A program made the position numbers and the translations under genes. This document shows, piece by piece, positions 4,784 through 37,733 of a stretch of DNA of 64,000 nucleotides. The DNA is taken from assembly GCF_058153355.1 (NCBI RefSeq), contig NZ_CM177019.1. One strand, 5' to 3'. Each line of letters opens with the position of its first letter. Within the stretch, counting starts at the first letter, position 1. A model generated the notes under the pieces. That model was not told where the DNA came from, ran no database searches, and saw nothing but the letters and a program-made list of their open reading frames with translations.

Positions 4784-5308
4784 TCAACAATTGATCGTCT
4801 GTGCCAGGGCGCTGCGAATTTCAGAAATCACCTGGCTGGGTTCGTTTGTTGCGTCGATGATAATATGCGCAACTTCGCGATATAGCGCATCGCGTTCTTC
4901 CAGCACTTCCTGAACTTCTTCGCTCAGCGGTTTCCCCGTTAAGGTTGGCCGTAAATCTTCTTCCGGTGCAGCTTGCAGTCGGTTAACCAGGACTGATACT
5001 GGCGCACACAAATAAACCACGATCCCGTTATTTTGCATAAAGTGACGATTAAATTCCGTCAGGATAATGCCGCCGCCCGTGGCGATAACGGTGGATGGCG
5101 CAGTTACCGCTTCCAACGCCGCCGTTTCTCTGGCGCGGAATCCCGCCCACTCTTCCCTTTCGACGATCTCCGCGACCGTCATATTGAGCTGTGATTGCAA
5201 CCACTGGTCGGTATCGACAAACCGACGGTTAAGTGAATCGGCAAGGGCCATTCCGACCGTTGTTTTACCACAGCCCCGAGGCCCGATCAGAAAAAGAGGT
5301 TGTGTCAT
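4784..5308 (-). CDS. aroL: Shikimate kinase II
   Basis: 174-aa ORF with P-loop GPRGCGKTT, recognised AroL. Confidence 0.95.
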
Positions 5309-5371
5309 CGTGGGTTTTCCCCAATAGGTCGCAATGCGGCGAAAGCCGGTGTCATGAGAATAGCGATCATA

Positions 5372-5489
5372 CCATCAAACTAGTACAATTTCGATTGTAA
5401 AGAAAAAATTCCACTTAAAGTGAAAATTTTAATACATCCCTTACTATACCAATAAATTTTCAAGAATGAAGTGTAAATAATAAATTACA
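5372..5489 (-). promoter_or_regulatory. aroL promoter/operator region with TyrR box(es) and a TrpR-like half-site
   Basis: tgtaaataataaattaca at 5472..5489 fits TGTAAA-N6-TTTACA; weaker tgtaaagaaaaaattcca at 5396..5413; ACTAGTAC at 5379..5386 resembles a trp operator half-site; aroL is known to be TyrR/TrpR regulated. Confidence 0.5.
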
Positions 5490-5490
5490 T

Positions 5491-5949
5491 TCAGCCACGA
5501 CTACGTTGCACTTCCAGCCACCACTTCTCCAGCTCCGCGGCAAAGGCCTGGCGGTCACGTTGTGAAAGGCTATCTGGTCCCCCGGTCTGGATCCCACTGG
5601 CGCGTAAGGTATCCATAAAATCGCGCATCGTCAGGCGCTCACGAATGGTCGCTGGTGTGTAACGTTCGCCGCGTGGATTAAGCGCCGCAGCGCCTTTCTC
5701 GATGGCTTCAGCAGCCAAAGGAATATCTGCGGTGATCACCAAATCGCCCGCTTCACACTGCCGGACAATTTCGTTATCGGCAACGTCGAAACCTGCCGCG
5801 ACGCGCAGCGTTCGAATAAATCGCGAAGGTGGTACGCGTAAACTCTGGTTTGCTACCAGTACCAGCGGCATCTGCATACGTTCAGCCGCGCGATACAAAA
5901 TCTCTTTAATTACATTGGGACACGCGTCGGCATCCACCCAAATTGTCAT
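5491..5949 (-). CDS. yaiI: UPF0178 protein YaiI
   Basis: ORF 5491..6069; 152-aa product from internal Met [16 protein letters not shown]... matches YaiI. Confidence 0.85.
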
Positions 5950-36709: not shown

Positions 36710-36850
36710 TTCAGTACCTCACGACTCGGACAAAATGCCGTTGCGCGCACAGTTCAACGCAACTTATTTTGTTAAAAACATGTAAATGATTTTTTATTGT
36801 GCGCTCAGTATAGGAAGGGTGTTTTCGGCTACAATCAAAACATGCCTGAG

Positions 36851-36867: not shown

Positions 36868-36899
36868 ACGTTGTTTTAACTATAGAAATGTCAATTAAT

Positions 36900-37733
36900 A
36901 TGCAGAAAGATGAGCAGGCGGAATACAAAACCGTGCGCGGCTTAACCCGCGGTATAATGTTACTAAATATGTTAAATAAACTCGATGGCGGTGCCAGCGT
37001 CGGGCTGCTGGCGGAGCTCAGCGGCCTGCATCGAACTACTGTGCGGCGACTGCTGGAAACGCTGCAGGAAGAGGGATATGTCCGGCGCAGTACCTCCGAT
37101 GACAGTTTTCGTCTGACCATCAAAGTGCGGCAATTAAGCGAAGGATTTCGTGACGAACAATGGATTTCTGCACTGGCAGCCCCGCTGCTGGGCGATCTGT
37201 TGCGCGAAGTGGTATGGCCGACAGATGTGTCCACGCTGGATGTTGATGCAATGGTGGTACGCGAAACCACCCACCGTTTCAGCCGTTTATCTTTTCACCG
37301 GGCAATGGTCGGACGGCGTTTACCGCTCCTGAAAACCGCCTCGGGCCTGACCTGGCTGGCCTTTTGCCCGGAACAAGAACGCAAGGAGTTAATCGAAATG
37401 TTAGCCGCCCGTCCCGGTGATGACTATCAGCTGGCACGGGAGCCGTTAAAGCTGGAAGCCATTCTGGCGCGCGCACGCAAAGAGGGTTACGGACAGAACT
37501 ACCGTGGCTGGGATCAGGAAGAGAAGATCGCCTCCATTGCCGTGCCCCTACGCAGTGAACAACGGGTGATTGGCTGTCTGAATCTGGTGTATATGGCAAG
37601 CGCAATGACCATCGAACAGGCAGCGGAAAAGCATCTTCCGGCGCTACAACGGGTAGCAAAACAGATCGAAGAAGGGGTTGAATCGCAGGCTATTCTGGTG
37701 GCCGGACGGCGAAGCGGCGTGCATTTACGCTAG
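36900..37733 (+). CDS. mhpR: IclR-family activator of the mhp operon
   Basis: ORF 36786..37733; 277-aa product from MQKDEQAEYKTVRGLTRGIMLLNMLNKLDGG... Confidence 0.9.
   Translation: MQKDEQAEYKTVRGLTRGIMLLNMLNKLDGGASVGLLAELSGLHRTTVRRLLETLQEEGYVRRSTSDDSFRLTIKVRQLSEGFRDEQWISALAAPLLGDLLREVVWPTDVSTLDVDAMVVRETTHRFSRLSFHRAMVGRRLPLLKTASGLTWLAFCPEQERKELIEMLAARPGDDYQLAREPLKLEAILARARKEGYGQNYRGWDQEEKIASIAVPLRSEQRVIGCLNLVYMASAMTIEQAAEKHLPALQRVAKQIEEGVESQAILVAGRRSGVHLR

Follow-up and report, generated by a model that had tools for sequence, protein, structure and literature searches.

The aroL promoter-operator region in an Escherichia coli genome segment: TyrR boxes, a TrpR-like site and a candidate second promoter

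The aroL locus

The window analyzed here, a stretch of DNA of 64,000 nucleotides, carries on its minus strand the gene aroL, which encodes shikimate kinase II, and directly upstream of it the end of yaiI (Table 1). The source is E. coli: among 5,426 complete genomes of this species, 5,425 are matched, with identities of 95-99.7%, by a 1.4-kb query taken around the region between these genes, and the annotated genes beneath the matches are, in order, proC, yaiI, aroL and yaiA. The window is oriented as the reverse complement of K-12, and a position in it is converted to a K-12 coordinate as 406405 + (5308 - window position).

This is the same locus as the aroL promoter-operator of K-12, for which three TyrR boxes and one TrpR site were reportedly described by Heatwole and Somerville in 1992 and by Lawley and Pittard in 1994. 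When the aroL upstream region is aligned to that of MG1655, it differs by five substitutions, all outside the arms of the TyrR boxes: two fall within the N6 of the weak box, and the yaiI stop codon, the P1 spacer and position -2 have one each. Apart from these positions, the three TyrR boxes, both -10 elements, the TrpR-like site and the leader between 5413 and the ATG show the same bases throughout. Because that leader is identical and there are only five substitutions, data mapped in K-12 carry over directly to the window. The first-pass annotation had assigned this segment to the aroL upstream region, and the identity to K-12 and the gene order confirm it.

Table 1. Features of the yaiI-aroL intergenic region and its borders, with positions in the window and, where available, relative to the P1 transcription start (+1 = 5435).
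Feature	Window position	Strand	Relative to P1 start	Sequence and remarks
yaiI stop codon	5491..5493	minus		TGA (TAA in K-12); 1 base from the upstream TyrR box
aroL upstream region	5309..5490	minus		182 bp, 33.5% G+C
Strong TyrR box, upstream	5472..5489	minus	-54..-37, centre -45.5	TGTAAATAATAAATTACA, in aroL sense TGTAATTTATTATTTACA; 11/12; G-N14-C kept
P1 extended -10	5443..5451	minus	-16..-8	TGgTATAGT; canonical aroL promoter; -35 poor; start 8 nt downstream
P1 transcription start	5433..5435	minus		5435 from RNA 5'-end maps; 5433/5434 from CRISPRa guide-design position
Weak TyrR box	5419..5436	minus	-1..+17, centre +8.5	TGTATTAAAATTTTCACT in aroL sense; 8/12; G-N14-C kept
Strong TyrR box, leader	5396..5413	minus	+23..+40, centre +31.5	TGTAAAGAAAAAATTCCA, in aroL sense TGGAATTTTTTCTTTACA; 10/12; G-N14-C kept
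P2 -35-like hexamer (candidate)	5389..5394	minus		TCGAAA; TTGGCG, TTGGTG or TTAACG in Citrobacter
TrpR operator-like site	5369..5386	minus	+50..+67, centre +58.5	GTACTAGTTTGATGGTAT; left half 9/9, right half 4/9
P2 extended -10 (candidate)	5366..5374	minus		TGgTATGAT; overlaps the right half of the TrpR-like site
P2 transcription start	5358..5359	minus		Secondary; leader of about 50 nt; 7-8 nt past the -10
aroL coding sequence	4784..5308	minus		174 aa; start codon ATG 5306..5308

TyrR boxes

The TyrR box is an 18-bp palindrome, TGTAAA-N6-TTTACA, and sites that match at least 10 of its 12 defined positions are classed as strong, those with fewer matches as weak; a G and a C 14 bp apart are an invariant feature of functional boxes (PMC4374768). 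Upstream of aroL there are two strong boxes and one weak box, and each of them retains the G-N14-C pair. The positions given in the first-pass annotation for two TyrR boxes (5472..5489 and 5396..5413) and for a TrpR-like half-site (5379..5386) are all exact. The box upstream of P1 fits the consensus as proposed, with a single mismatch. The box in the leader had been called the weaker of the two; it is located where it was said to be and has two mismatches, but under the rule of at least 10 of 12 it is still a strong box. The weak box is absent from that annotation, and it overlaps the mapped start of P1. In Pittard's numbering, we take the upstream box to be box 3, the weak box to be box 2 and the leader box to be box 1.

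A symmetric matrix was constructed from the TyrR boxes of MG1655 aroF, tyrP, aroP, mtr, aroG and tyrR, with aroL excluded; the upstream regions examined for boxes were those of aroF, tyrP, aroP, tyrB, mtr, aroG and tyrR. Across the 63,983 positions of the window, this out-of-sample matrix ranks the two boxes named in the first-pass annotation first (the upstream box, 21.4 bits) and second (the leader box, 14.6-17.6 bits), and the weak box tenth (9.4 bits). Among the boxes used to build the matrix, strong ones score 15-23.5 bits and weak ones (aroF, tyrP and aroP) 9.9-11.2 bits. A possible fourth TyrR box lying over the TrpR-like site (5370..5387) was also considered and was rejected, since it scores only 0.2-1.4 bits.

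It might be argued that such motifs turn up by chance where intergenic DNA is AT-rich, and that they do nothing in regulation. The G+C content here is 33.5%, and in the window as a whole there is no enrichment of sites with at most two mismatches to the TyrR consensus (three found, 2.62 expected). Similarly, the TrpR-like 8-mer GTACTAGT taken alone is expected 0.52 times in the window and found once, which is not significant. However, two of the three TyrR matches are located 76 bp apart in front of aroL, and when the 182-bp region was shuffled 20,000 times with dinucleotides preserved, only 10 shuffles (0.05%) contained two non-overlapping sites with at most two mismatches; 55 contained one site with at most one mismatch. 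The spacing of the boxes is also shared with other TyrR-regulated genes: centre-to-centre distances at aroL are 53 and 23 bp, and the 23 bp between the leader box and the weak box is found between strong and weak boxes in aroF, tyrP and aroP as well. When the first and second ranks with the out-of-sample matrix, the conservation of the box arms across two genera while spacers drift, and the documented response of aroL to TyrR are added to this, a chance origin of the TyrR boxes is in effect refuted, and we regard it as vanishingly improbable.

The third-best match to the TyrR matrix in the window is TGTAAATGATTTTTTATT at 36781..36798, which agrees with the consensus at 10 of 12 positions; of its G-N14-C pair, the essential C is missing. 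This site (also 36889..36906) is at the start of a 315-aa open reading frame divergent from another of 554 aa; from their position and sizes, we guess that the two are an mhpR/mhpA-like pair. The TyrR-like site is probably a chance match in AT-rich sequence.

The main promoter

Four K-12 sources place the main aroL start, that of P1, at window positions 5433-5435. Kim 2012 gives NC_000913.2 position 405502 (136 reads, 5'UTR of 127 nt), which corresponds to 5435; the sequence listed there upstream of the start ends in ...TATAGTAAGGGGTG. Cappable-seq reports the same start, 405502, with an RRS of 4.74, and SMRT-Cappable-seq reports a start for b0388|b0389|b0390 at 406277 (0-based). Finally, a CRISPRa guide table lists guide TGGTGGCTGGAAGTGCAACG with its 3' end at -70 from aroLp, which leads to 5433/5434. 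Misplacement relative to the mapped start had been raised as a possible objection to the TyrR assignment; as mapped, the three boxes are centred at -45.5, +8.5 and +31.5, at or over the core promoter of an aromatic amino acid gene, and the objection does not hold. The -10 hexamer of P1 lies at -13..-8, the same position as at P2. Both fit the pattern of a sigma-70 extended -10 promoter, a TGnTATAAT-like element followed at 6-9 nt by a 5'-triphosphate start. The layout at P1 agrees with the 1994 work of Lawley and Pittard, who reportedly found boxes 1 and 2 downstream of the start, with the TrpR site beside box 1, and box 3 upstream of the -35.

A consensus promoter scan overlooks P1 on account of its poor -35 and its dependence on the TGn element. 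The only promoter found by that scan is P2, discussed below; P2 was considered as the main aroL promoter and was rejected, since all four sources put the main start at 5433-5435. An IHF site has reportedly been proposed for the aroL region; the IHF core consensus WATCAANNNNTTR has no match with at most one mismatch in 5309..5490.

Conservation in Escherichia and Citrobacter

A protein-seeded scan of species-representative genomes detected 6 further Escherichia loci, 18 Citrobacter loci and 1 Winslowiella locus. The scored footprint comprises 26 rows, namely the window, K-12 and 24 Escherichia and Citrobacter loci, and thus spans two genera; loci from Salmonella, Klebsiella and Enterobacter are absent from the scan results. 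In these 26 rows, the upstream strong box has a mean column conservation of 0.96, and the left half of the TrpR-like site reaches 0.97. The P1 element TGnTATAGT is invariant in 8 of 9 columns, with variation only at the n, and exactly the same is true of TGnTATGAT at P2. The arms of the leader box are conserved in both Escherichia and Citrobacter. By comparison, the spacers score 0.65-0.75 and the weak box 0.65, the latter being poorly conserved outside Escherichia. In the work of Lawley and Pittard from 1994, boxes 1 and 3 were reportedly essential and box 2 dispensable. Two conserved strong boxes and a drifting weak one fit this mutational result.

The TrpR-like site

The 8-mer ACTAGTAC at 5379..5386, read on the minus strand as the GTACTAGT mentioned above, supplies the good half of a TrpR-like site 18 bp long. 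The full TrpR palindrome, GTACTAGTT.AACTAGTAC, is 18 bp in length and has two CTAG cores; the site upstream of aroL departs from it at 5 of 18 positions, and no match with at most three mismatches is present anywhere in the window. The half-site of the first-pass annotation belongs to the left half, which matches 9 of 9 positions; the right half matches only 4 of 9, and the site is only half-palindromic. A matrix was also constructed from the operators of trp, aroH, trpR and mtr. With it, the site is the top match in the window, at 14.5 bits (the next two score 13.9 and 13.0), but it falls well below the four training operators, which score 21.0-25.1 bits.

Judged from the sequence by itself, the site would be a weak TrpR operator at best, and it is conservation and the literature that support its assignment to TrpR. 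Regulation of aroL by both TyrR and TrpR is reported in Enterobacterales, with TrpR control of aroLM conserved only in a few close Enterobacterales (PMC5343134). A 2025 CRISPRi and reporter study, by contrast, finds that tyrR alone regulates aroL and detects no effect of TrpR on it.

Proposed regulation of aroL

We conclude, with a probability of about 0.93, that the region is the canonical promoter-operator of E. coli aroL (aroL-yaiA-aroM). Such a promoter-operator, with TyrR and TrpR sites, is already known and is not novel. The finding as it stands recovers a textbook control region, and since it re-identifies one, its value is that of a positive control for the scan. Beyond the first-pass annotation, the present analysis adds the weak TyrR box, the positions of the sites relative to mapped starts, a footprint across two genera, published read-through transcripts and a plausible secondary promoter. 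What is observed directly comprises the sequences of the sites, the support for them from statistics and from the out-of-sample matrix, where they lie with respect to published starts, and how well they are conserved in Escherichia and Citrobacter. Binding of TyrR and TrpR at aroL, looping by a TyrR hexamer and the numbering of the boxes are background from the literature and not from the sequence.

Combining the two, aroL would be transcribed mainly from P1, a promoter that is probably sigma-70 dependent and would rely on its extended -10, TGgTATAGT, for initiation at 5435. The two strong TyrR boxes would bracket this promoter, one abutting the yaiI stop codon just upstream of the -35 position and the other within the transcribed leader, with the weak box over the start site and 23 bp from the leader box. 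When tyrosine and ATP are available, dimers of TyrR would assemble into a hexamer. The hexamer could then occupy all three boxes, draw the promoter into a loop of roughly 76 bp, and shut off initiation. Tryptophan-bound TrpR, on the half-palindromic site beside the leader box, may contribute a small extra repression.

Several published observations bear on this model. Hexamer-mediated repression of aroLM is stated (PMC10170061), and knock-down of tyrR derepresses aroL in the 2025 CRISPRi study. In Yersinia pestis, aroL is likewise derepressed in a tyrR mutant.

A candidate second promoter

The sole find of a consensus promoter scan of 5200..5600 is TCGAAA-17-TATGAT, with a TG before the -10 (5394..5366). 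Starts matching this promoter, P2, are present in two published K-12 datasets. Cappable-seq of cells in M9 glucose reports a second start, on the plus strand of K-12, at U00096.2 position 405579 (RRS 7.35, enrichment 3.87), which corresponds to window position 5358, and SMRT-Cappable-seq reports a b0388|b0389 start at 406353 (0-based), which corresponds to 5359. Relative to this start, the TrpR-like site lies at -28..-11, and the leader TyrR box is centred at -46.5, mirroring the upstream box at P1 (-45.5).

The pattern of variation in this block is also informative. In five Citrobacter species, the n of TGnTATGAT is changed from G to A, which removes the G that the right half of a TrpR site needs. 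In C. sedlakii, the left half of the TrpR-like site is lost and the -10 is kept as TGGTATGAT. Because of these two cases, the constraint on the block looks like that of a promoter rather than that of a TrpR site. P2 is thus a plausible secondary promoter beneath the TrpR-like site, and may be what TrpR actually represses.

If so, a refinement could be added to the main explanation. P2 is downstream of all the TyrR boxes, and TrpR would repress it directly; the apparent dependence of TrpR on TyrR would then arise because P2 becomes visible only when P1 has been shut by TyrR. We hold both parts of this proposal tentatively, as possibilities clearly less likely than not. It is slightly more doubtful that the TrpR-like site is the operator of P2 and that the "synergy" of the tyrosine and tryptophan repressors is a two-promoter effect and not a protein-protein interaction. 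What speaks for the refinement is the combination of evidence described above: the only consensus-type promoter in 5200..5600, a 5'-triphosphate start that is seen in both Cappable-seq (where its RRS of 7.35 compares with 4.74 for P1) and SMRT-Cappable-seq, a -10 element invariant but for its n in 26 rows, substitutions in five Citrobacter species and in C. sedlakii that damage the TrpR site and spare the promoter, and a geometry that mirrors P1 in the placement of both the TyrR box and the -10. In addition, the abstract of the Lawley and Pittard study reportedly states that repression by tyrosine rose and the effect of tryptophan was abolished once 4 bp had been inserted between box 1 and the TrpR site, and this is the outcome that would follow from destroying the -35 or the spacing of P2.

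On the other hand, protection of the aroL site by TrpR is reported to be slightly enhanced by TyrR, which favours cooperation between the two proteins. Knock-down of trpR raised neither aroL transcripts nor the activity of a P_aroL reporter in the 2025 CRISPRi study. For aroL, Kim 2012 gives P1 alone, both of the datasets that support P2 come from one laboratory, and a second aroL promoter is not mentioned in the literature searched. Should P2 prove real, its importance would be modest: the superposition of tryptophan control on the control of shikimate kinase II by tyrosine would have a simpler explanation. The promoter would also concern those who engineer strains with deregulated aroL to produce aromatic compounds, since a promoter under TrpR control would not be affected by deleting only tyrR.

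Read-through from yaiI

As the first-pass annotation stated, the upstream TyrR box adjoins the yaiI stop codon, which is one base away. Of 24 scorable Escherichia and Citrobacter loci, 23 have a gap of 0-9 nt between the two; in the remaining one, from an Escherichia sp., the stop codon is inside the box. This abutment is not universal in Enterobacteriaceae, since in K. pneumoniae yaiI and aroL are separated by KPN_00331, a hypothetical gene that runs on the opposite strand (Kim 2012). The supplementary table of the same study places the K. pneumoniae aroL start at NC_009648 position 371238, with a 144-nt leader.

With a gap of 0-9 nt, there is no room for a terminator between yaiI and the box, and neither an intrinsic terminator nor a terminator-like structure was found in 5200..5600. 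SMRT-Cappable-seq reports yaiI-aroL-yaiA transcripts, and longer ones extending from yaiI to b0392, that begin at a yaiI start at 405741. The earlier remark on read-through from the upstream gene is thus partly supported, both by the lack of a terminator in 5200..5600 and by full-length transcripts.

The remark itself was that read-through and repressor binding may interact. It may be that the upstream box serves mainly as a roadblock, where bound TyrR would halt polymerase that arrives from the yaiI promoter and so insulate aroL. The close abutment of stop codon and box, the missing terminator and the transcripts from 405741 would all suit such a role. However, the same transcripts indicate that any roadblock is incomplete, and the location of the box, centred at -45.5 and abutting the -35 position of P1, together with the 53 and 23 bp spacing, is already explained by repression of P1. 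We therefore regard a roadblock as improbable, and prefer to view the upstream box as part of the operator of P1.

Comparison with other TyrR- and TrpR-regulated promoters

The closest parallel outside aroL itself is the aroF-tyrA operator. It also has three TyrR boxes, with spacings of 52 and 23 bp in place of 53 and 23 bp; the outer boxes are strong in both, and the weak box is 23 bp from a strong one. Repression of aroF-tyrA is likewise mediated by tyrosine and the TyrR hexamer (PMC10170061). Unlike aroL, aroF-tyrA has no TrpR site, and its boxes are positioned differently relative to the promoter.

Besides aroL, mtr is the other promoter that has both TyrR boxes and a TrpR operator (PMC5343134). 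The roles of the regulators differ: mtr is activated by TyrR and has TrpR as its dominant repressor, whereas at aroL TyrR represses and dominates. The mtr operator is also the better palindrome, scoring 21.0 bits against 14.5 for the aroL site. In the trp and aroH operators, TrpR sites lie over the core promoter. If P2 is functional, the aroL site would be located similarly, at -28..-11, the classical position. It differs from those operators in having one good half only and in being far downstream of P1 (+50..+67).

A final comparison is with the P1 and P3 promoters of aroP, where TyrR boxes downstream of the start recruit polymerase to a promoter on the opposite strand (PMC4374768). In aroL, too, there are TyrR boxes downstream of the main start, and a weak start on the opposite strand (4 reads) is found beside the leader box. 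This antisense start is given by Kim 2012 at NC_000913.2 position 405540 on the K-12 minus strand, equivalent to approximately 5397 on the plus strand of the window. On the plus strand within 5383..5397, it is preceded by a TACAAT hexamer (5383..5388), the TrpR half-site in reverse complement. The arrangement resembles aroP P3, and the start is at most a candidate for a TyrR-dependent promoter.

The aroL leader

A small open reading frame of 20-21 codons (5306..5370, minus strand) begins at the ATG within TATGAT and ends at an ATGA or TGATG that overlaps the aroL start codon. The frame stays open in 25 of 25 Escherichia and Citrobacter loci, and its distance to aroL is -65 in 24 loci and -64 in the remaining one. 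No codon-position periodicity was detected in it (entropy 0.66, 0.67 and 0.77 for the three positions), and for this reason it was treated as non-coding; it probably does not encode a peptide.

The leader also has two small conserved hairpins on the minus strand, with a consensus energy of -8.05 kcal/mol and weak covariation. In the one nearer to the aroL start codon (5311..5323), the GGGG of the Shine-Dalgarno sequence pairs with a downstream CCCA or YYCU. The other (5329..5342) has the form YCGC-N6-GCGR, and includes one compensatory pair at the level of the clade, C-G in Citrobacter and U-A in Escherichia.
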